Source: Chamaesiphon sp. (lineage in GTDB: Bacteria > Cyanobacteriota > Cyanobacteriia > Cyanobacteriales > Chamaesiphonaceae). From it: a stretch of 64,000 nucleotides of DNA. The stretch spans positions 1-64,000 of the forward strand of contig CBDFFH010000020.1 in the NCBI GenBank assembly GCA_965246715.1, in the 5' to 3' direction. The notes beneath the pieces were generated by a model that was not told the origin of the DNA, did no database searches, and was given only the letters and a program-made list of their open reading frames with translations. The position numbers and the translations under genes were made by a program. Numbering within the stretch: position 1 is the first letter of the stretch; every line of letters begins with the position of its first letter. Shown piece by piece: positions 1,466 to 58,349 of this stretch.

Positions 1466-2575
1466 ATGTTAGTTCAAAAAGGTCAAGTATCCAACTCTAA
1501 TCGTCCAATCTGGCTGGTGCTAGATGATAGCTACCAGCCTATCGAACCCATTCTGGCGTACCTACGCTATCTCGACAGCTTAGAGAAATCGCCCAATACA
1601 GTCAGATCCTATGCCTATAACCTCAAACTTTACTGGGAGTTCTTGAATGATCAACATCTCAACTGGGAGGATGTCAATTTAGAACAGTTGGCAGACTTCA
1701 TCCACTGGCTCCGAAATGCTCAACCAGCGGGTGTAATCTCCATTCAGCCTCAAGTATCCAAGCGAACGGAGAAGACCATCAACCACGCTCTAAATACTGT
1801 CTCGATGTTCTATGAGTTTCACCTGCGAATAGGGGATGTTAAGGAGGTTAAAACTCATACCTACCAAGTACAACCAGGGCGGAAATTTAGACCATTCCTG
1901 CACCACATCAGCAAAGGGAGAGAAGTCAAAACCCGATTGCTGAAAATTAAAGAACCAAAGACTTTCCCTGGCTGCTTAACTGCCGAGCAGGTCAAACAAC
2001 TCATTGCGGGTTGCTATCGAATTAGAGATAAGTTCCTCATCTGTTTGCTGTATGAAACTGGAATGCGGATAGGAGAGTTGTTAGGACTGCGCCATGAGGA
2101 TATTCGCTCTCAGGGTGTGAATGAGATTCATGTTGTACCCAGACTAGATAACATTAATAGCAGCCGTGCTAAGGCAGGAGAACAGCGGGTAATTCATGTA
2201 TCAAAGGAGCTACTAAAACTTTATTCAAGTTACTTAATTGAGGAATATCCAGAAGATGTAGATTGTGATTACGTCTTCGTCAATTGTTGGGATGGAGAAA
2301 TAGGACAAGCAATGCGTTATAGCTCTGTAGAAGGGTTATTTCAGCGGTTAGAGAAGAAGACTGGTATCAAAGCAAACCCGCACCTATTCAGGCATACTCA
2401 CGCCACTGAGTTAATTAGGTCTGGGTGGGACATGTCATATGTTCAAAAAAGGTTAGGTCACAGTAACATCCAGACCACGATTAATACTTATGTTCATTTA
2501 ACTGAACAAGATCTACGAACAGAGTATGACAAATATTTAGAGACTAGGGAGAATAAGCATGAACCCCAAGATTAG
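1466..2575 (+). CDS. tnpA: Tyrosine recombinase, Tn554 TnpA-like
   Basis: N-terminal SAM-like domain (SPNTVRSYAYNL); catalytic motifs ETGMRIGE, HLFRHTHAT, LGHSNIQTTINTY. Confidence 0.9.
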   Translation: MLVQKGQVSNSNRPIWLVLDDSYQPIEPILAYLRYLDSLEKSPNTVRSYAYNLKLYWEFLNDQHLNWEDVNLEQLADFIHWLRNAQPAGVISIQPQVSKRTEKTINHALNTVSMFYEFHLRIGDVKEVKTHTYQVQPGRKFRPFLHHISKGREVKTRLLKIKEPKTFPGCLTAEQVKQLIAGCYRIRDKFLICLLYETGMRIGELLGLRHEDIRSQGVNEIHVVPRLDNINSSRAKAGEQRVIHVSKELLKLYSSYLIEEYPEDVDCDYVFVNCWDGEIGQAMRYSSVEGLFQRLEKKTGIKANPHLFRHTHATELIRSGWDMSYVQKRLGHSNIQTTINTYVHLTEQDLRTEYDKYLETRENKHEPQD

Positions 2576-4142
2576 ACAGGAAGAACAAGAGCAGGTTGAG
2601 CTTAAATTAGTTCAGCCGACTCAGATTAATTGCCCTAGATGCGGAGGTGATAATTATTCCAAAAGGTGTCCAACAAAGGCTGGTACTCAACAATATTACT
2701 GTAAAGTTTGCAAGATTAAATTTATTCAGTTTTCTGACAAAAATTTGCTCAGAAGTGATGACGTGTGGTTTGCAGAGGATCTAGGCTTAAATATTCATCC
2801 TCATAGGCAAAATCATGGGACTAAATTTAACTTTCAACAGATCAGGCAAGAATGGTTAAAAAAAGTTGTTAAAAAATTTATTAGGTATAAGGCTAGTATT
2901 CAACTAAGCTTTGATACCCTGCAAACATATTTGACAGACTTAAATCATTTTTCATTATTTTTGATGAAAAATTATTCTATCAATCGGGCTGAAGATATAG
3001 ATCGTTCTGTTATCATAAAATACTTAGAATACAGTAGTCAAAACAAATTAACTCCAAAGACTCAAGGTTCTCGTATTTCTACGTTAGCATCCTTACTTGA
3101 AACTGGGGCTGCAAATAATTGGTTTGCACTGGAGCCTTATTTAATTAGAAAAGAAGACTACCCCAAGCGAATTAAAGCCTTACCTCGTTACATCCCTGAT
3201 GATGTAATTCATCAATTAAACCAACATCTAGATAGCTTACCTGAGTCAGTAATGCGAATGGTATTAGTTATTCAAGAGTGTGGTTTAAGGATAGGTGAGC
3301 TATGTCAATTATCATTAGATTGTCTCAAGCAAGATGCTAAGGGTGGGTGGTTTATCCAGTTTATGCGTTGGAAGATGAAATTTGAAACGACTCTTCCAAT
3401 ATCCATTGAACTTGCTGAAGTTATAAAAGAACAGCAATCATATATTCAAGAAAGCTTAGGCAAAGATTATCCATATCTTTTTTGTGCTAATAAAAATGGT
3501 GGGTTTAGTCATGAATTCACTCCCAATCCTAAAGTAATGGGATGCAAGCCGTTTATCAACTATGTAAAACGACTAGCAGACGAATTTGATGTCTGTGACA
3601 GTACTGGTAAGCGTTGGAATTTCCAAACTCATCAGTTTCGTCATACAGTTGGTACAAAGATGATTAATAACGGTGTACCACAGCACATCGTCCAACGTTA
3701 TCTAGGTCATGATTCACCCCACATGACCTCAGTATATGCTCATATTCATGATGCAACCCTTAGAAAGCAGATCGACAAATATTTAGATACTAAAGTTATC
3801 AATATTAATGGTGAGGTGGTTGAATCAATTACGTCAGAATTAGATACAGATTCTAAGCTCCAGTGGATGAAGAAAAAAGTCTTAGCAGAAACTTTACCTA
3901 ATGGTTATTGCGGCTTACCCGCTCAACTAACTTGTAGTAAAGGCAATGCCTGTCTAACCTGTAGCGACTTCCGCACTACTGTAGAATTTATCGACCAGCA
4001 TAAGCAGCAACTAGAAAGAACTAATCAAGTATTAGAAGTAGTTCAAGCCAATGGTTGGGAGCGACAAATACAAGTCAACCAAGATGTTAAAACCAGTCTA
4101 GAAAAAATCATTACTACTCTGGAGGCAAATCAAGATGCCTAA
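2559..4142 (+). CDS. tnpB: Tyrosine recombinase, Tn554 TnpB-like, with N-terminal zinc ribbon
   Basis: CPRC...CKVC ribbon; ECGLRIGE, HQFRHTVGT, LGHDSPHMTSVY; Cys-rich C-terminal LPNGYC...CLTC motif; overlaps tnpA. Confidence 0.9.
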   Translation: MNPKIRQEEQEQVELKLVQPTQINCPRCGGDNYSKRCPTKAGTQQYYCKVCKIKFIQFSDKNLLRSDDVWFAEDLGLNIHPHRQNHGTKFNFQQIRQEWLKKVVKKFIRYKASIQLSFDTLQTYLTDLNHFSLFLMKNYSINRAEDIDRSVIIKYLEYSSQNKLTPKTQGSRISTLASLLETGAANNWFALEPYLIRKEDYPKRIKALPRYIPDDVIHQLNQHLDSLPESVMRMVLVIQECGLRIGELCQLSLDCLKQDAKGGWFIQFMRWKMKFETTLPISIELAEVIKEQQSYIQESLGKDYPYLFCANKNGGFSHEFTPNPKVMGCKPFINYVKRLADEFDVCDSTGKRWNFQTHQFRHTVGTKMINNGVPQHIVQRYLGHDSPHMTSVYAHIHDATLRKQIDKYLDTKVININGEVVESITSELDTDSKLQWMKKKVLAETLPNGYCGLPAQLTCSKGNACLTCSDFRTTVEFIDQHKQQLERTNQVLEVVQANGWERQIQVNQDVKTSLEKIITTLEANQDA

Positions 4143-5001
4143 AGAAGATGGCAAGGATATCAGAATAGCGGCTCTTAAAAATGCTGCGGTGGCAAAACAA
4201 CAACGAGCCGCTGAGGGGTTAGATAAAGCTATCAATAAACTCATCAAGAGTAATGAGCCGATGAGCTTTGCTAATGTAGCGAGAGAAGCTGGTGTATCAA
4301 TCAGTTACTTGTATAAGTACCCAGAGGTTAAAGCAAGAGTTTTAGAGCTAAGACAACAGCAACAACAGGTAGGTAAACCAAATAAAATACAAACTGCTTC
4401 TGATGCTTCTAAAGCTGTAATTATTAATGAGTTGAGAGAGAGAATTAAGAAACTTGAAGCAGATCTAACTGGACTACGCAAAGCAAATGAGGGGATGGCG
4501 GGAAGACTTTACCAACTCCATGATATGCAAGTCATGGTGGAAAGACTCAAGGCAGAGAATGAAGACCTAAAAAAACGAGTAGCTGAACAGGTGAAAACAT
4601 CTGATGATCTAGACCCTAACTCAATATCTGGCAGCAATGTTACATCGATTACTCAGAGATCTAAATCATCTGTCAGTGATGCAATCAAAGCCGAACTGGA
4701 GCAATTAAATATTCCACTTAACAGTACCCTGACTAAAAGAATTAAAGCCGTGACAGAGGAACGAGTTCTAGCTGCTATCACTGCCCTCAAAGATCAACTA
4801 ACTAAAGGTGAGGTTACTAATCCTGGCGGTTGGTTATCAACTGCGATTCAAGATGGGTGGACAGTGGCAGAACCAATTAGCTCATCTCAACCACCACAAA
4901 GAGAGATATTCACCGTGTCAGTCGAACTACAACCGACGACAAAATTAGTCTCCTTGGACAAGCTAAAAACATTAAACAATATTTTCCAGAACGATGATTG
5001 A
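4135..5001 (+). CDS. TnpC-like (DUF6262-type) HTH/coiled-coil protein with an extra C-terminal domain
   Basis: SFANVAREAGVSISYLY HTH then coiled coil, third gene after two recombinases; extra C-terminal region containing NPGGWLSTAIQDGW. Confidence 0.75.
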   Translation: MPKEDGKDIRIAALKNAAVAKQQRAAEGLDKAINKLIKSNEPMSFANVAREAGVSISYLYKYPEVKARVLELRQQQQQVGKPNKIQTASDASKAVIINELRERIKKLEADLTGLRKANEGMAGRLYQLHDMQVMVERLKAENEDLKKRVAEQVKTSDDLDPNSISGSNVTSITQRSKSSVSDAIKAELEQLNIPLNSTLTKRIKAVTEERVLAAITALKDQLTKGEVTNPGGWLSTAIQDGWTVAEPISSSQPPQREIFTVSVELQPTTKLVSLDKLKTLNNIFQNDD

Positions 5002-6301
5002 TAAGTTACCGCCACTGAATATTGAAGTTGAAGAAAACATTTTAGGTGGAGTTCTATTAGATCCTCATGCCATCTTGCGAGTTGTAGATATTCTCAGTCC
5101 TGAAGCTTTCTATATTGAATCGCATCAAGTCATCTATCAAGCGATATTAGACCTTTACGCACAGCAAAAGCCAACGGATATGTTGGCTGTTAGCAGTTGG
5201 CTCAAAGACCATAAGCTGTTAAAGAAGACAGGTGGGGAAGCTAAATTAGTTCAACTGTTAGAACGGACGGTTAGTGCTGTTAACATCGACCATTTAGCAC
5301 GTCTCGTTCAGGAGAAGTACCAACGTCGTCAACTAATTGCCACTACTCAATCGATTACCGATCTGGCTTATGATACTGCCACTCCAATCGATTCAGTGAT
5401 GGAACAAGCGGAGGAAAAGATATTCAACATCAGTACCAATAAAGCAGATCGCTTTAAACCAGAAACTATTGAAAGTTGTCTGATTGATGTGTTCAATCAA
5501 ATTAGTCAAGATTCACCACCTCTATACCCGACCGGATTAAGAGATCTAGATGGAATGATTGGGGGCTTAGTCAAGCAAGATCTGATTGTGATTGGTGCCA
5601 GGGCTTCGATGGGTAAAACTTGGCTGGGGTGTTATCTGGCTAATTATATTGCGACTACTCAACAGCAGCCTGTGGTCTTCTTCAGTGCGGAGATGTCTAA
5701 GTCTCAATTAACTAAGCGGTTCTTGGCGATGCACTCTGGTATTGACTCTCAGCGGTTAATTAGGAATGAAGTCTATGAGCATGAATACGAGGCTTTAATA
5801 GCTGGGTTGGAAAAGCTAAAGCAATCACCGTTAATTATTGACGATACTCCCGCCAGCATTCAAAATCCTTCACGGATGCGCTCTGTACTGCGACGGGTTA
5901 AGTCCGAGCGCGGTGGGTTGGGCTTGGTGGTGATGGATTACATTCAAAAGTTGGGAGATAGAGCCGCAGGTAATCGAGCGCAAGCAGTGGGTAAACTCTC
6001 TGGAGCATTTAAGGATATTGCCAAGGAGTTTGATGTCCCTTTCGTGGCTTTGGCACAGGTTAATAGGGGTGTAGAGAGTCAGTCTAACAAGCGTCCTGGG
6101 ATGGCTGATATTAAAGATAGCGGCGATATTGAACAAGACATGGATGTTGGACTGTTACTGTATCGAGAGGAGTACTATGACGCTCAGACGGCGGCTAGGG
6201 GGTTGATGGAGATTAATGTGGCTAAGAATCGGAATGGTGCTACCGGAACTTGTCAGGTAGCATTTGAGCCTACTGTGGGTAGTTTCAGTAACAAGGGGTA
6301 G
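4994..6301 (+). CDS. dnaB: Replicative DNA helicase DnaB
   Basis: N-terminal PPLNIEVEENILGGVLL; Walker A GARASMGKT; FSAEMS, MDYIQ, LAQVNR, DIKDSGDIEQD, AKNRNGATG motifs. Confidence 0.95.
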   Translation: MIDKLPPLNIEVEENILGGVLLDPHAILRVVDILSPEAFYIESHQVIYQAILDLYAQQKPTDMLAVSSWLKDHKLLKKTGGEAKLVQLLERTVSAVNIDHLARLVQEKYQRRQLIATTQSITDLAYDTATPIDSVMEQAEEKIFNISTNKADRFKPETIESCLIDVFNQISQDSPPLYPTGLRDLDGMIGGLVKQDLIVIGARASMGKTWLGCYLANYIATTQQQPVVFFSAEMSKSQLTKRFLAMHSGIDSQRLIRNEVYEHEYEALIAGLEKLKQSPLIIDDTPASIQNPSRMRSVLRRVKSERGGLGLVVMDYIQKLGDRAAGNRAQAVGKLSGAFKDIAKEFDVPFVALAQVNRGVESQSNKRPGMADIKDSGDIEQDMDVGLLLYREEYYDAQTAARGLMEINVAKNRNGATGTCQVAFEPTVGSFSNKG

Positions 6302-9340: not shown

Positions 9341-9376
9341 GCCAAGTTGTGGGACAACGTTGTCCCACAACTTGGC
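9341..9376. repeat. 36-bp perfect palindrome, parS-like core GTGGGACAACGTTGTCCCAC
   Basis: Same core flanks parAB at 56169-56194 and 58310-58349. Confidence 0.8.
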
Positions 9377-10341: not shown

Positions 10342-10802
10342 AGTTCCACGTAATTACGTGGAACTATACAAATAACCTGAAATTGTTTCTGAATATAGGT
10401 TTCTGGCGATTAATTCTTTCTTTCTTTCTTTGACTTTTGACTGGTGCCAACTATCGCTAGTAGTTTATCTGCTGATTTAGTTCCACGTAATTACGTGGAA
10501 CTATTGAAATGAGCTAAAACTGTTGACAAACAACACTTTCACCGAAATTCTCTTTCGAGAATAGCCAGCACTCGATCGGATATGCTAAGACTATAATTCT
10601 TACTGAGTAAGGATTTAAAGCTAGTGTTTAGTTCCACGTAATTACGTGGAACTAAACACTAGCTAAAACTGTTGCTCAAAGCCATTTAAAGCACAATTCT
10701 AGTCTAGAAATTGAATGAGATCGATCGGGTATGTTAAAGCTGAAATGCTTATTTAGCAAAGACTACAAGTTAAAATTTGGTTCCACGTAATTACGTGGAA
10801 CC
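10342..10802. repeat. Array of four 22-bp palindromes GTTCCACGTAATTACGTGGAAC
   Basis: Cores start at 10343, 10480, 10631, 10780 (spacing 137, 151, 149 bp). Confidence 0.95.
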
Positions 10803-11087
10803 GCGCAAATAACTTATAATCAGCTCTAGCTGTGCATTTCCGGCAATTAAGACCTTAACCGCTGCCACCTGTTCTGGTGCAACAGAGACGGTGCGGGATT
10901 TATATTTTCCATCTGCTTGCTTCTCCTTGTATGTTAGTTGCCAAAACCAATGCTCGACATTTTGGGGATCTCGATCTCCAGGGACGAGGGGATATTCTTT
11001 GGTTTGTCCGTTCTGTAACTGTTTTTTCTTGGTGCGTTGATAGAGAGTTCCGCTTCGACCGGGTACTCGATCGCCACGAATTTTCAT
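10791..11087 (-). CDS. Small basic hypothetical protein, possibly DNA-binding, ending in the fourth palindrome
   Basis: 98 aa, Lys/Arg-rich, YPLVPGDRDPQNVEHWFWQLTY motif; stop TAA is in the palindrome centre. Confidence 0.65.
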   Translation of the reverse strand: MKIRGDRVPGRSGTLYQRTKKKQLQNGQTKEYPLVPGDRDPQNVEHWFWQLTYKEKQADGKYKSRTVSVAPEQVAAVKVLIAGNAQLELIISYLRGST

Positions 11088-11201: not shown

Positions 11202-12616
11202 GGTTCTACCGAACTTACTATGCTAAATCAAGGATTGAAATGCCATGCTAGCAAACTTCTGATCTGAAAATTCTCAAAATTTCTAAACCCATATCCCATT
11301 CTTTTTATTAGCTTGAGTTTATTGTTAATTCCTTCGACGACTCCTTGAGTTGTTCTATTATCAAAATAGGCAATTATTTCACCAATCCATCTTTTAATAG
11401 TTCCACAACTCTTGGGGAATTTCCCACAAGCATTCTTGAGCCAGTCACACAAGCTTATTAGCCCATTTCCCCAATCTGTTTTTGATTCAAATATATCTCT
11501 AAATAACTCTTTTGTTTTGTGCATTGCTGCTAATTCTGGAAAAACGTCTCCAATCTCTTTCAACTTCTCTTTTTGCAATTCATTCAAATCCGCTTCGTTT
11601 TTGAGTATTGCATATTTACTGTGAGTTAATGCTGCTAATTTCTTGTTCTTTTCATCTTTGTTCTTCACCCTCTCAGCCTCTCTTTTGATTTTAATTCTCT
11701 CTCGATCTAACTCTTCATTTATCTGTTTCATTACATGAAATCTGTCTCCAACCACTTCAGCATTTGGTATCAATTCATTTACCAGACTTTTGTATGATGA
11801 AAATAGATCGATACTTACTTCTGTAATTTGGTTCAAAACCTCCGAACCCCAAGACTTCAAGCACTCACCAATACATTCTTGAGTCCTTTTTGGTAAGATG
11901 GCTATTAACTCTCTTTTTTCTAGATCTACTAACACCGCACAATAGTTTTTTTGCCCTTTAACAAAGGCAATTTCATCAATTCCTAGTCTGGTTAAATTCT
12001 CTGGCTTTTTTTGCACTAGATTTACCCCAGCTTTTTTGATTATTGTCTCCACTTCTTGCTCACTTAATCCATTTCTTTTGGCAACACTTTTAATATCACT
12101 AGCTAGACTCTCTTCGACAATCTTCTGCTTCATTCGCTCGGTGAAATGACTTCTCTTTTTGATGAAATTTAATTCCTCACTGAATTTTCGACCACAACTC
12201 ATACACTTGAATTGACGACGATTAATTTTAAGGTAAACATCATGTTCACCGAATGGTAGATCTCTCACTGTTAATTGGTGATTCTCATGAAGTTTATTAC
12301 TTTCAGTTCCACAATGAGGACACACTGCTTTTAATTGCTGATTTTCTAGATAAATAAAATAACCGATTTCATCTAAGATCTTATAAGCAGTGACGGTCAT
12401 TCCGTCGATATTAAGAATTTCATTAATGGTTTTTAGTTGCGATTTGGATGACATAATGCAATTCAAGCTTATTTGTTGCCAGAAATCAAGATCTTACTAT
12501 TCTATAATAAAATCTGTCATTTATGCTGCACCAAGCTTCCATAACTCAAAATTATCAATTTTGTCAATTAAACTTGATTCTTATCCACTACTTAGCATAG
12601 CAAGTTCGGTAGAGCC
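11202..12616 (-). mobile_element. ISL3-family insertion sequence, 1415 bp
   Basis: TIRs GGTTCTACCGAACTTACTATGCTAA / TTAGCATAGCAAGTTCGGTAGAGCC; 8-bp TSD TGAAATAT (11194-11201, 12617-12624). Confidence 0.95.
11228..12466 (-). CDS. ISL3-family transposase
   Basis: CPHC...CMSC zinc finger, GIDEIAF, DRFHV, EGINNKLKLIKRMGYGFRNF. Confidence 0.95.
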   Translation of the reverse strand: MNCIMSSKSQLKTINEILNIDGMTVTAYKILDEIGYFIYLENQQLKAVCPHCGTESNKLHENHQLTVRDLPFGEHDVYLKINRRQFKCMSCGRKFSEELNFIKKRSHFTERMKQKIVEESLASDIKSVAKRNGLSEQEVETIIKKAGVNLVQKKPENLTRLGIDEIAFVKGQKNYCAVLVDLEKRELIAILPKRTQECIGECLKSWGSEVLNQITEVSIDLFSSYKSLVNELIPNAEVVGDRFHVMKQINEELDRERIKIKREAERVKNKDEKNKKLAALTHSKYAILKNEADLNELQKEKLKEIGDVFPELAAMHKTKELFRDIFESKTDWGNGLISLCDWLKNACGKFPKSCGTIKRWIGEIIAYFDNRTTQGVVEGINNKLKLIKRMGYGFRNFENFQIRSLLAWHFNP

Positions 12617-25759: not shown

Positions 25760-27354
25760 GGTTCTACCGAACTTACTATGCTAAATCAAGGATTGAAATG
25801 CCATGCTAGCAAACTTCTGATCTGAAAATTCTCAAAATTTCTAAACCCATATCCCATTCTTTTTATTAGCTTGAGTTTATTGTTAATTCCTTCGACGACT
25901 CCTTGAGTTGTTCTATTATCAAAATAGGCAATTATTTCAGGTTCTACCGAACTTACTATGCTAAATCAAGGATTGAAATGCCATGCTAGCAAACTTCTGA
26001 TCTGAAAATTCTCAAAATTTCTAAACCCATATCCCATTCTTTTTATTAGCTTGAGTTTATTGTTAATTCCTTCGACGACTCCTTGAGTTGTTCTATTATC
26101 AAAATAGGCAATTATTTCACCAATCCATCTTTTAATAGTTCCACAACTCTTGGGGAATTTCCCACAAGCATTCTTGAGCCAGTCACACAAGCTTATTAGC
26201 CCATTTCCCCAATCTGTTTTTGATTCAAATATATCTCTAAATAACTCTTTTGTTTTGTGCATTGCTGCTAATTCTGGAAAAACGTCTCCAATCTCTTTCA
26301 ACTTCTCTTTTTGCAATTCATTCAAATCCGCTTCGTTTTTGAGTATTGCATATTTACTGTGAGTTAATGCTGCTAATTTCTTGTTCTTTTCATCTTTGTT
26401 CTTCACCCTCTCAGCCTCTCTTTTGATTTTAATTCTCTCTCGATCTAACTCTTCATTTATCTGTTTCATTACATGAAATCTGTCTCCAACCACTTCAGCA
26501 TTTGGTATCAATTCATTTACCAGACTTTTGTATGATGAAAATAGATCGATACTTACTTCTGTAATTTGGTTCAAAACCTCCGAACCCCAAGACTTCAAGC
26601 ACTCACCAATACATTCTTGAGTCCTTTTTGGTAAGATGGCTATTAACTCTCTTTTTTCTAGATCTACTAACACCGCACAATAGTTTTTTTGCCCTTTAAC
26701 AAAGGCAATTTCATCAATTCCTAGTCTGGTTAAATTCTCTGGCTTTTTTTGCACTAGATTTACCCCAGCTTTTTTGATTATTGTCTCCACTTCTTGCTCA
26801 CTTAATCCATTTCTTTTGGCAACACTTTTAATATCACTAGCTAGACTCTCTTCGACAATCTTCTGCTTCATTCGCTCGGTGAAATGACTTCTCTTTTTGA
26901 TGAAATTTAATTCCTCACTGAATTTTCGACCACAACTCATACACTTGAATTGACGACGATTAATTTTAAGGTAAACATCATGTTCACCGAATGGTAGATC
27001 TCTCACTGTTAATTGGTGATTCTCATGAAGTTTATTACTTTCAGTTCCACAATGAGGACACACTGCTTTTAATTGCTGATTTTCTAGATAAATAAAATAA
27101 CCGATTTCATCTAAGATCTTATAAGCAGTGACGGTCATTCCGTCGATATTAAGAATTTCATTAATGGTTTTTAGTTGCGATTTGGATGACATAATGCAAT
27201 TCAAGCTTATTTGTTGCCAGAAATCAAGATCTTACTATTCTATAATAAAATCTGTCATTTATGCTGCACCAAGCTTCCATAACTCAAAATTATCAATTTT
27301 GTCAATTAAACTTGATTCTTATCCACTACTTAGCATAGCAAGTTCGGTAGAGCC
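25760..27354 (-). mobile_element. ISL3 copy (25940-27354) preceded by a 180-bp duplicate of its end (25760-25939)
   Basis: Same sequence as 11202-12616; 8-bp TSD TTGCATAG (25752-25759, 27355-27362) flanks the whole compound structure. Confidence 0.95.
25966..27204 (-). CDS. ISL3-family transposase (identical protein to 11228..12466)
   Basis: Identical translation in the ORF track. Confidence 0.95.
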   Translation of the reverse strand: MNCIMSSKSQLKTINEILNIDGMTVTAYKILDEIGYFIYLENQQLKAVCPHCGTESNKLHENHQLTVRDLPFGEHDVYLKINRRQFKCMSCGRKFSEELNFIKKRSHFTERMKQKIVEESLASDIKSVAKRNGLSEQEVETIIKKAGVNLVQKKPENLTRLGIDEIAFVKGQKNYCAVLVDLEKRELIAILPKRTQECIGECLKSWGSEVLNQITEVSIDLFSSYKSLVNELIPNAEVVGDRFHVMKQINEELDRERIKIKREAERVKNKDEKNKKLAALTHSKYAILKNEADLNELQKEKLKEIGDVFPELAAMHKTKELFRDIFESKTDWGNGLISLCDWLKNACGKFPKSCGTIKRWIGEIIAYFDNRTTQGVVEGINNKLKLIKRMGYGFRNFENFQIRSLLAWHFNP

Positions 27355-34290: not shown

Positions 34291-34405
34291 GGGCGTTGCT
34301 GAATCCAAGTATGATAACTACTTCCTTCTATCCTCAAAAACCTTGGTAGGGGCAATTCATGAATTGCCCCTACCAAGGTTTTCATACCTTAAATCAGCAA
34401 CGCCC
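34291..34405. mobile_element. 115-bp MITE-like element containing a REP-like hairpin
   Basis: Ends GGGCGTTGCTGA / TCAGCAACGCCC, ATTTTT on both sides; internal palindrome AACCTTGGTAGGGGCAATTCATGAATTGCCCCTACCAAGGTT. Confidence 0.7.
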
Positions 34406-37214: not shown

Positions 37215-37658
37215 ATGCGTACTTTCACTGCTAACTTCTTTATCCTCTCCGCTCAAATCGGCGATACAACCATTGCTGGTACTGCCATCGATGGCGATAT
37301 TAAAGTTAACTTTGCCGTTGCTGCTACTGATGTCAATCAACGCTTATTCGTACCAGAATCTAACTTGGTTGTAGCTGGTAAATTCCGCTTAGGTAAAGAG
37401 CTTGCCACCATTGGTGTATGGATTTCCAAGATTATTGCTGTCGTGTCTATTCCAGCACCCGTATCTGCTGAAGTTGAAGTACTCGCACTCGAACCAGTCG
37501 AATCAACAATTATTGATGATGCTAAATCGATCGCTGTAGAACTCGCTCCTGTAACTGAAGTTACTGAAACGAGCGTTCCACTTACACCCGCACAAAAACG
37601 TGCTGCTACTATTGCGGCAAATAAAGTTAAAGCTGAATCTGCGATCGCCACTTGCTAA
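37215..37658 (+). CDS. Hypothetical protein
   Basis: GGAG RBS, ATG at 37215, preceded by the repeated GCTTCGCT motif. Confidence 0.6.
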   Translation: MRTFTANFFILSAQIGDTTIAGTAIDGDIKVNFAVAATDVNQRLFVPESNLVVAGKFRLGKELATIGVWISKIIAVVSIPAPVSAEVEVLALEPVESTIIDDAKSIAVELAPVTEVTETSVPLTPAQKRAATIAANKVKAESAIATC

Positions 37659-37816
37659 ATCTCCATTGCTTGCTAGTAATTACTAGCAAGCAATTTATTT
37701 ATGTGCTTCGCTTAGTAATTATGAGAAATAGCAAGAGTTAGTTTGCTGCTAACTCTTGCTATTTTTGTCAATAAAAAAGGTCGCAAAACGACCAAAATTA
37801 TAATTAACGAAATTCC

Positions 37817-56168: not shown

Positions 56169-56194
56169 CGTGTGGGACAACGTTGTCCCACACG
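56169..56194. repeat. parS-like palindrome upstream of parA
   Basis: CGTGTGGGACAACGTTGTCCCACACG. Confidence 0.8.
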
Positions 56195-56221: not shown

Positions 56222-57106
56222 ATGACCTTACCGCAAAAAAGTAGCCAGTCCAAAGTGGCTCAAAGACAAATTCGGATTTGTATTGCCAGTAATGCTGGCG
56301 GATCTGGTAAAACAACTGCTGCCGTTCATTTAGCATACGCGATCGCTGCCAAAGGATTTAAGGTGACGATTATCGAATTAGATATCTCTAGTTCCTTGAG
56401 TACCTTCACTGGATTGTCCATGAATCCAGAACCACAAGACTCGATCGCGACGGTATTCGAGCCTGATTTTGCTGGAAATTACCCGCTCAAACCAGTCTGG
56501 GCAGAAAAAACTGACAAAATTACCGCCATTCAGGGCGGTGAAGCGATCGAGCGAGTAATTCGCGAGATTCCCCTCAATCCACGCGGACATTATTTATTAC
56601 AAGATCGGCTTGAAGATTATCCCCTAGCTGCCGATGTCATTCTATTTGATACCCCAGCTACCTTAGAACCAATGGGGGTCGTTGCCTTGGCTGCTAGCAC
56701 CCACGTTCTATCGCCAATTAAGCCAGAAAATAAGGATGCTGAAGGCTTTGCTGGTTTTATCCGGTGGTATTTTAGGCAATTATCAGAATTAAGACTGCGC
56801 CCCAAGCCAGAAATATTAGGATTCGTCCCCAATCGAGTAGACTGGGCTGAAACCTCCATGCACCGGAATTTTCTGGGACTGAATAAACAGGGTAAGCTCC
56901 GCACTGATATCGATCTGAGCGATACCTTGCCAGTACTAATCGAAGAAATGGGGATTCATTGCTTCCCCGCGATTCGTCAGTCTAATTACTATCTCAATGC
57001 GTCTTTAGAAAGATTGCCGCTTCAGCTTTACCGCCCTGGCTGTGATGCTGCCAAAGATTTCGACCCGATTACCGACAAAATTGTAGAATTATTAACCGAG
57101 GCATAA
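56222..57106 (+). CDS. parA: ParA-family partition ATPase
   Basis: NAGGSGKTT, ILFDTPATL, GFVPNR. Confidence 0.92.
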   Translation: MTLPQKSSQSKVAQRQIRICIASNAGGSGKTTAAVHLAYAIAAKGFKVTIIELDISSSLSTFTGLSMNPEPQDSIATVFEPDFAGNYPLKPVWAEKTDKITAIQGGEAIERVIREIPLNPRGHYLLQDRLEDYPLAADVILFDTPATLEPMGVVALAASTHVLSPIKPENKDAEGFAGFIRWYFRQLSELRLRPKPEILGFVPNRVDWAETSMHRNFLGLNKQGKLRTDIDLSDTLPVLIEEMGIHCFPAIRQSNYYLNASLERLPLQLYRPGCDAAKDFDPITDKIVELLTEA

Positions 57107-57111
57107 AATTT

Positions 57112-58305
57112 ATGGCTGCTCAAACTAAAAAGCTCGGCGGATTGCGCGATTCTTTTCAGGGTGCTAGAGAATATCAACAAATTGAGGGCTTACAATCCGA
57201 GGTAGAGGATCTCAAAGCTGAAGTTGCTAGGCTCAAGTCGCAGGAACTTAATAGTGTCCAGCAGTCTCAACTTGAAGGGCAAATTGCCGAACTAACCGCA
57301 CAACTAGCGGCTCGATCCGGAATTCATCGGATTTCGGTCGGTAAAATCGATCGCGATGAAGCTCAACCACGAACCGTATTTCCCCCAGCAATCGTTCAAG
57401 AAAGAGCTGAAAGTCTTCGTACTAAGGGTCAGCTCACACCGATTATCGTTATCCCCACGGGCGATCGATATAAGTTGTTTGAAGGTGAATTGCGCTGGCG
57501 AGGTGCTCAAAAACTAGGTTGGGAGGAGTTGGAAGCCGTGTTTTTAACGGCCGCAGCATCTCTAAATGCTACTGAGATCTTCGAGCGGCAGGTAGTTACC
57601 AGCATTCAATCCCAACGTCTGCACGATCTGGATATCGCCGAAGCAATAATTAAATTGACCGTCGATCGTTATCCCAACTGGGCTAGCCGAGAAACTGAGA
57701 TTCCGAAGGCTCTTCATGCCGCTCTGCGTCAGATGGAGAGAGAGGGTAACGCTCCAGATTTTAATACTCTCAAAATAGCCGATCCCCAGACTCAACAATT
57801 ATGGCTCGATAGTCTAAAAAACAAAGATGAGGAGAAACAGATTTTCCAGACGATCTTGGGCTTACAACTTCATCCCGCTAGTATTAATAAGCATATTCTT
57901 CCCCTCTTAAAAGTGTCAGATGATGTGAAAGCGGCGATCAGAGAGTACGGACTCGAAGGTAGCAAGGCAAAGCAAATTGACAGGCTTACCCCTGAATATC
58001 TGGGACAGTCAGATGAAGATGCCTTGAAAATTAGAGCCGAGGTAATTCAACAAATAACTGAAGATAAATTATCTTTAATTGAAACCAAAATGTTAATTGA
58101 AGATACGATCGATACTCATGTCCCCACTCCTGTAATTAAACCAGATCGAGTCGTTCAAGTGACTGGGAAAGTCAATAAGTTGTTAGCAGATATTAATACT
58201 GCCCAAGAACTAGCCGATCTCGAACGCGCACTCAAGGAAATCCAAAAAGCTCTTAAACTCAAGCGTTCCGAGCTTCAACCGCCATCTCAATCGCCTTCAG
58301 CATAG
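57112..58305 (+). CDS. parB: ParB-family partition protein
   Basis: QPRTVF, GQLTPIIV, EGELRWRGA. Confidence 0.9.
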   Translation: MAAQTKKLGGLRDSFQGAREYQQIEGLQSEVEDLKAEVARLKSQELNSVQQSQLEGQIAELTAQLAARSGIHRISVGKIDRDEAQPRTVFPPAIVQERAESLRTKGQLTPIIVIPTGDRYKLFEGELRWRGAQKLGWEELEAVFLTAAASLNATEIFERQVVTSIQSQRLHDLDIAEAIIKLTVDRYPNWASRETEIPKALHAALRQMEREGNAPDFNTLKIADPQTQQLWLDSLKNKDEEKQIFQTILGLQLHPASINKHILPLLKVSDDVKAAIREYGLEGSKAKQIDRLTPEYLGQSDEDALKIRAEVIQQITEDKLSLIETKMLIEDTIDTHVPTPVIKPDRVVQVTGKVNKLLADINTAQELADLERALKEIQKALKLKRSELQPPSQSPSA

Positions 58306-58309
58306 ATCG

Positions 58310-58349
58310 TTAAATACCTGTGGGACAACGTTGTCCCACAGGTATTTAA
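58310..58349. repeat. 40-bp parS-like palindrome downstream of parB
   Basis: TTAAATACCTGTGGGACAACGTTGTCCCACAGGTATTTAA. Confidence 0.8.

Follow-up and report, generated by a model that had tools for sequence, protein, structure and literature searches.

The window analysed here, a stretch of 64,000 nucleotides from Chamaesiphon sp., contains a small gene that ends in an array of palindromes, and we propose, with a probability of roughly 0.45, that its 98-aa product is a sequence-specific DNA-binding protein with its own sites, used for plasmid maintenance. That each palindrome is bound by the protein as two half-sites is a part of this proposal that we regard as likely. The 262-kb contig whose first 64 kb form the window carries parA, parB, relaxase-like and transposase genes and is therefore probably a plasmid. 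The array is flanked by two convergent genes, and the relevant features are as follows.

10343..10364, no strand: palindrome copy 1, perfect over 24 bp (10342-10365)
10365..10479, minus strand: spacer u3, a decayed duplicate of the gene 3' end that reads ELIARNLYSETISGYLYSST-stop into copy 1 (z 5.7 against the gene-end profile)
10480..10501, no strand: palindrome copy 2, perfect over 26 bp (10478-10503)
10502..10630, no strand: spacer u2, homologous to u1, with a weak dyad near 10596-10614 and a CGATCG
10631..10652, no strand: palindrome copy 3, perfect over 46 bp (10619-10664)
10653..10779, no strand: spacer u1, the first after the gene, whose counterpart in genome G301 follows the third palindrome
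10780..10801, no strand: palindrome copy 4, perfect over 24 bp (10779-10802), with a gene-side arm that forms the final codons G-S-T and the stop
10791..11087, minus strand: 98-aa ORF of an undescribed cyanobacterial plasmid domain, basic (pI 9.9, 17 K+R, 9 D+E)
10939..10943, minus strand: TGGCA at codons 49-50, the insertion point of a three-recombinase element in homologous genes of G301, empty in the window
9341-9376, 56169-56194, 58310-58349 and G000:C20:228577, no strand: palindrome TGTGGGACAACGTTGTCCCACA, four copies, found on this contig only

Four exact copies of GTTCCACGTAATTACGTGGAAC start at positions 10343, 10480, 10631 and 10780, with the spacing of 137, 151 and 149 bp that an earlier note on this DNA had claimed, and the number of copies expected by chance was 0 (100 shuffles). 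When up to 5 mismatches were allowed, no fifth copy was found across the 6.1-Mb genome. The 98-aa ORF (10791-11087, minus strand) is present as described, and its stop codon (TAA, 10793-10791) does lie within copy 4, not in the centre at which it had been placed but on the three positions immediately gene-side of it. The reported homology of spacers 2 and 3 (u2 and u1) was borne out by 78/129 identical positions, a score reached by 0/300 shuffles, and spacer 1 showed weak or no similarity to spacers 2 and 3 (3/300 and 47/300 shuffles). Both of the weaker dyads that had been quoted as flanking each core were found (10591 and 10740); they are not beside every core and instead sit in spacers 2 and 3, and the first alone is a fair dyad (7/8 bp). 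A CRISPR-like or structured RNA array was considered as a candidate but was not supported: the Rfam search of the array yielded nothing at the gathering score and microRNA hairpins alone below the threshold, and the spacers are related to one another and to the gene.

Other palindromes were also observed in the host genome (G000). A lone 30-bp perfect palindrome in the window (37665-37694) shares the GTAATTAC core of the array but has unrelated arms, and an ORF that ends at 37658 lies just before it. REP-like perfect palindromes with the core GGGGCAATTCATGAATTGCCCC are present at 34337-34382 of the window and at about 20 other places in this genome, with symmetric, copy-specific flanks of up to 58 bp. 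Symmetric extension of palindromes seems to be general in this genome.

To examine conservation of the gene together with its palindrome, we used a set of 37 loci, taken from metagenomes and the host genus such that each distinct place was represented once, from which one locus (L015) was excluded owing to a match that stops short of the C-terminus, although a site exists there (n = 36). A palindrome was centred between –5 and +60 bp from the stop codon at 35/36 loci, compared with 12/725 ordinary ORFs from four host contigs. A search for adjacent palindrome arrays in homologues was the check that the earlier note itself had suggested, and their presence agrees with its idea of a compact protein-plus-site module belonging to no named system. 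Two to five copies lie within 1 kb at 31/36 loci, and the copies in relatives are spaced about 120-240 bp apart. As judged from sequence, gene plus palindrome is a conserved module. The core GTAA-TTAC is constant across relatives, with a centre of 0 or 1 bp, and the arms vary by protein clade (GTTCCAC, GTTCCAA, GTTCCAT, TTCTAAA, TTAGGAT, TTAGGGT and others). On the protein tree, the 11 arm types required 10 changes, the minimum possible, among kin that are not independent; because of this non-independence, and because first arms in the main clade lie within coding sequence, the agreement between arm and clade shows linkage and not binding. Among the 97 distinct sites (at most one arm mismatch), 90 were symmetric, and a private change appeared on both arms in three single copies. 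At G000:C46:62100-62430 (L013, L015), a paralogue follows primase-like and helicase genes and is accompanied by a single site of its own, TTTTCCATGTAA-T-TTACATGGAAAA. A chimeric gene was observed at L065 (G307:C563), with the N-half of one clade, the C-half and sites of another and a switch near codon 50.

The model of the 98-aa protein predicts five strands followed by two C-terminal helices (pLDDT 85). No significant family was found in Pfam or NCBIfam, the best PHROGs match (E 0.009, to a family of unknown function) was not significant, and the PDB sequences contained no match. A Foldseek search of the model returned nothing at E 0.001, and the best VIA-align Z of 3.4 neither shows nor excludes a new fold; the fold comparison covered AP2/arm-binding, PC4 and HUH, and the PC4/Pur-alpha results were weak and were set aside. 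DUF6788 (PF20586), a language-model neighbour of the protein at 0.87-0.88, is alike in size, but its HMM was matched neither by the 98-aa protein nor by any of the aligned members (0/90, E 0.01), and it is therefore a lead only; DUF6788 had no match in 201 genomes and none in the controls either, a negative that is uninformative.

Close homologues (n = 50) are mostly 98 aa long, and the named ones indicate a Chamaesiphon-like cyanobacterial host. The gene is present in 15/39 genomes of the host's family, in one genus only. A wider profile led to 205 clusters, in most of which the domain forms the C-terminus of longer ORFs, and six proteins contain two domain stretches with motif-coded repeats between them. 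The residues Y32, R39, H46 and W47 are near-invariant. In longer family proteins, the domain is fused to or overlaps C5 methyltransferase sequences and sequences that we take, from their motifs, to be adenine-methyltransferase-like, ASCH-like and GIY-YIG-like. At L003-L007, L011 and in some plasmid records, the C5 methyltransferase ORF overlaps, in another frame, a long ORF ending in the domain, an arrangement that we take to resemble two-subunit methyltransferases. The family was matched by 31 plasmid records and 0 phage records, and no relative was found among viral contigs and phage records. The 98-aa protein belongs to an undescribed cyanobacterial plasmid domain, which often lies at the end of replication operons. 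Our search of the literature, with subscription papers and supplements outside its scope, found no description of the domain family or motif, and the passages of PMC10899382 on cyanobacterial plasmid replication contained no 'repeat', 'palindrom' or 'iteron'.

We further opened 15 plasmid records and inspected the neighbourhood of the domain. In five of these, the domain ORF lies directly after a replication gene, or one ORF away (DUF5906, primase/polymerase, CyRepA1 and, twice, dnaB), and in a sixth it follows a large ORF of apparently similar kind. Four other records place it after an HTH-type gene and a small unnamed ORF, and five showed no replication or HTH-type link.

In distant members, repeated motifs of 12-17 bp lie inside the gene or follow it; some form inverted pairs at a distance of 11-20 bp, some form direct repeats, and others stand alone. 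Each motif was chosen from the neighbourhood of its gene, and local matches are thus present by construction; the wider spread is not. The plasmids that carry the domain in distant relatives contain 11-44 scattered copies of a related 12-13-bp motif, which, exceptions aside, hardly occurs on chromosomes. For TTTCCYCTAAGAA, the domain's contig holds 22/25 of the genome-wide exact matches in G206, 29/30 in G035, 18/21 in G116 and 18/19 in G104, but only 5/11 in G208. The corresponding values for TCCCCYAGAACT are 21/22 in G501, 13/18 in G518 and 11/14 in G242, with 5/11 and 0/13 in further genomes, and those for TGGTGTAAGAC are 7/8 in both G131 and G192, with 3/3, 3/5 and 0/1 in further genomes. 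The values of 0/13 and 0/1 belong to G376 and G429, domain carriers that lack the tested motif on their own contig. Among individual plasmids, pANACY.03 has 44 motif sites, p1FD4 has 14, every one beside the domain, and Scytonema NIES-4073 plasmid4 has 16 in its 17-kb backbone and 0 in its Tn3 cargo. At least 10 matches to TTTCCYYTAAGAA were present in 4/301 genomes, three with the domain and the fourth (G032) without it. The domain was not detected beside motif-rich plasmid-like patches in G032, G152 (9 matches) and G107; these patches have backbone genes in common with motif-rich plasmids and may be relics. Since four motif-rich Nostocales-type contigs have three more genes of the same operon in common, the binder on such contigs is not pinned to the domain, and the stand-alone genes of the host genus are the better argument for the domain as binder. 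Of the dispersed motifs, 41/114 are inside ORFs, often coding FLEE, and 35/114 lie between –15 and +100 bp from a stop codon, compared with 11.9 expected, an enrichment that is inflated by the TAA within the motif, which can itself create a stop; near starts, 17 were observed and 12.0 expected.

Regarding the growth of the array, the outermost spacer u3 is a decayed copy of the gene 3' end, and gene end plus site also occur in tandem duplicate in unrelated clades. The candidate explanation that every spacer is the second half of the gene was rejected, as most first spacers fail to align to the gene; 15/117 flanks had a z over 3 against the gene-end profile, and these include two or three genes that the filter had missed. 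Mirroring of flanks site by site was also rejected, as same-site flanks were no more alike than other-site flanks. The order of units (P, palindrome) is gene-P-u1-P-u2-P-u3-P in the window and gene-P-u2'-P-u3'-P-u1' in G301, the gene of which is 98% identical; in the latter, a 79%-identical copy of the first 100 bp of u1 follows the third palindrome. The run X8, possibly from one strain with G301, shows the same joint, with 23 letters that fit both sides.

Several islands lie between arrays. A 21-kb BREX island is located between two arrays of G301:C2 (L052/L072, 297.7-319.0 kb); its genes are BrxE, A, B, C, PglX, PglZ, BrxD and BrxHI, with brxC in two pieces and insertion sequences between. 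Past the island, 21 kb on, there is a gene-less array close to u2, u3 and the TPR flank of the window. A precise insertion of the island into u1 was not supported, as the sequence before this orphan array is not significantly u1-like (7/300 shuffles). In G321 and G301:C1, arrays also enclose a type IIG restriction/helicase island of 18-21 kb, which ends in a gene-end remnant. At L066, a photolyase-family gene lies between sites, beside an Xer-like recombinase; members of this recombinase family abut the array in L054, L066 and L069, and the homologue on the window contig is 174 kb away. At L048/L059, homology ends 50-60 bp beyond the outer sites, and a comparison with L082, a presumed empty site, revealed no junction. 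The reordered units and islands look like cassette traffic, although short-repeat slippage or homologous exchange would give the same result. At the TGGCA noted above, an element with three tyrosine recombinases, a TnpC-like gene and dnaB was observed in several paralogues (L073, L074, L075 and L077, in G301:C1), and the truncated database proteins P0043-P0050, P0056 and P0067 suggest the same insertion elsewhere. Because the gene is broken by insertions at several G301 loci, it is dispensable, at least there.

In the mechanism that we favor, the 98-aa protein would bind the four palindromes found where its own gene ends, forming a complex that would serve plasmid inheritance without a motor protein of its own. 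Each palindrome would represent two head-to-head half-sites (TTCCACGTAA), one per protein unit; we read it in this manner because the related half-sites of relatives have a 0-/1-bp centre, lie 11-20 bp apart, repeat directly or stand singly. The array may have grown by tandem duplication of gene end plus site, with the cores kept by selection; the cores are identical and the spacers have diverged. Because the gene comes after several unrelated replication systems, it would act in segregating or organising the plasmid, like StbA or KorB, and not in initiation; this is the weakest step of the proposal. On sequence grounds, the palindrome at the stop codon and its further copies, the arm types that follow the protein tree, the plasmid-borne family, the motif that marks the carrier contig, the replication genes before the domain, the proteins with two domain stretches, the basic protein and the confident model appear to favor binding and maintenance. 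On the other side, the co-variation of site and protein is partly forced by linkage; there are motif-rich patches without the domain and domain carriers without the motif; any of the three other operon genes of the Nostocales-type contigs could encode the binder; the fold searches linked the predicted structure to no known DNA-binding domain; a parA-parB pair with a palindrome of its own is already present on this contig; and the gene is dispensable in G301. No further half-site was found on the 262-kb contig, and the sites here are only local.

We considered whether other explanations account for these observations. The letters of GTTCCACGT are indeed half of the parS quoted in the earlier note, the setting is a plasmid near par genes at several loci, and at L067 a parA-like gene and its partner are flanked by sites of the array family. 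However, it is extremely improbable that the palindromes are parS sites of the host or plasmid ParB and the 98-aa ORF is incidental. The site accompanies the small gene at nearly all loci examined, homologous sites read GTTCCAA, GTTCCAT, TTCTAAA, TTAGGAT and so on, such that the parS-matching base varies, and canonical parS, in three spellings, had no match across the host genome. The array sites differ from parS in their 8-bp central insert and unconserved arms, and the 98-aa protein, having no Pfam/NCBIfam match, has no ParB/Spo0J match. Moreover, parA-parB (56222-58305; ParB, 57112-58305) are flanked by the different perfect palindrome TGTGGGACAACGTTGTCCCACA, which is likely the parS of this plasmid, and the likeness of the array arm to parS is coincidental. 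The sites might instead act on transcription, as RNA hairpins or as a roadblock formed by protein, so that transcripts are terminated or insulated where genes end, their own gene among them. The position of the array between convergent genes and the excess of dispersed motifs near stops are in line with this role, but given that the stop count is inflated by the motif itself, that no U-tract terminator was called at the palindromes and that no Rfam family reached the gathering score, we consider it very unlikely.

The reordered units and the islands bear on another explanation, in which the palindromes are crossover sites, as in integrons or Acinetobacter pdif, a plasmid tyrosine recombinase acts in trans, and the 98-aa protein is an accessory factor, such that units are shuffled and cargo such as defence islands is captured. 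Consistent with this, near-identical modules differ in unit order between the window and G301, with the agreeing X8 joint; the BREX and type IIG/helicase islands and the L066 photolyase-family gene lie between arrays or sites; an Xer-like recombinase is present at three loci; and 50/367 alignment ends are no more than 25 bp away from a site centre in each of the two partners, a proximity shared by about 1% of bases, although many of the 50 simply mark where the coding sequence ends. Nevertheless, the module has no recombinase, the nearest candidate on the window contig being the distant homologue, and its 0-/1-bp centres and half-sites 11-20 bp apart misfit the sites of tyrosine recombinases, which have a fixed 6-8-bp asymmetric spacer. 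The reordering could have arisen by slippage or by homologous exchange of the gene end with its decayed copy u3', homology at L048/L059 ends outside the outer sites, and the BREX island did not insert cleanly into u1; we therefore regard this explanation as unlikely. A role as address tag or selfish site amplifier, in which the domain binds or nicks the motif and promotes its copying through the plasmid while fused enzymes (DNA methyltransferases, ASCH, GIY-YIG) are tethered to DNA marked as self, seems similarly improbable. The mostly C-terminal position of the domain next to such partners, its near-invariant residues, motifs inside ORFs, tandem duplicates of gene end plus site in unrelated clades, and the both-arm private changes and 46-58-bp extensions, which point to hairpin-templated copying, are compatible with this role. 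In contrast, the window protein stands alone with undispersed sites, a nuclease fold was not matched, and parAB-linked and other host palindromes are likewise extended (26-40 bp), indicating that extension is generic. A combined possibility, which we hold as tentative and somewhat doubtful, is a self-addressing system, in which the domain would use tens of dispersed 12-13-bp sites to label its own plasmid and would bring methyltransferases and other enzymes to them, the sites of the host genus being head-to-head palindromes and exchange points of cassettes, including entire anti-phage islands.

With respect to known systems, plasmid maintenance by the 98-aa protein and its sites would be analogous in role to StbA and KorB. 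According to passages of 10.1101/2022.04.29.490116, StbA of R388 is a winged-helix protein that binds direct repeats of 9 bp, separated by 2 bp and located upstream of its own gene, represses promoters and segregates the plasmid without an NTPase partner. The StbA/stbS pair is similar to the present module in being a small plasmid protein with a cognate repeat cluster beside its gene, free of a motor and with more copies elsewhere on the plasmid. In contrast, the present model is beta-rich and not winged-helix, palindromes of 22 bp, at or after the stop codon and at intervals of about 150 bp, stand in place of the promoter-side direct repeats, and gene starts are not enriched for the family motif. 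KorB belongs to the ParB family and has ParA as a partner. Its operator OB is palindromic and has 12 copies on RK2, as stated in a passage of the same report (10.1101/2022.04.29.490116). In both cases, a palindromic or repeated site is distributed across a single plasmid and linked to a protein of that plasmid, whereas the 98-aa protein has no ParB match and its relatives have up to 44 sites, many in ORFs. The module is a member of neither system, as it differs in fold, site type and site position.

Acinetobacter pdif modules (PMC13141974, PMC6449649) are similar in their repeated sites, reordered units and accessory cargo between sites. The same holds for integron cassettes. Unlike those systems, the present one has no XerC/XerD-type bipartite site, an adjacent integrase is missing at most loci, the 0-1-bp centre is symmetric, and junctions are not always at a site. 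The iterated cyanobacterial motif HIP1 (GCGATCGC), for which a link to DNA methyltransferase is proposed in a passage of PMC4390886, is 8 bp long and genome-wide, whereas the motif here is 12-22 bp long and plasmid-restricted. Passages of PMC10899382 describe the maintenance of large cyanobacterial plasmids as little known, and the module is a candidate protein-site pair of <800 bp across many plasmid types, open to binding and stability tests. The plasmid-restricted motif also flags plasmid contigs, and if the sites also move defence islands, they would represent a new route for cassette traffic.

Mobile elements were also observed around the gene. The window contains two identical ISL3 transposases (11228-12466 and 25966-27204), the first of which is separated by about 140 bp from the upstream side of the 98-aa gene, whose promoter it may influence. 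The two tyrosine recombinases, DUF6262 gene and dnaB at 1466-6301 are arranged on a plan like that of the three-recombinase element and constitute a Tn554-like element.
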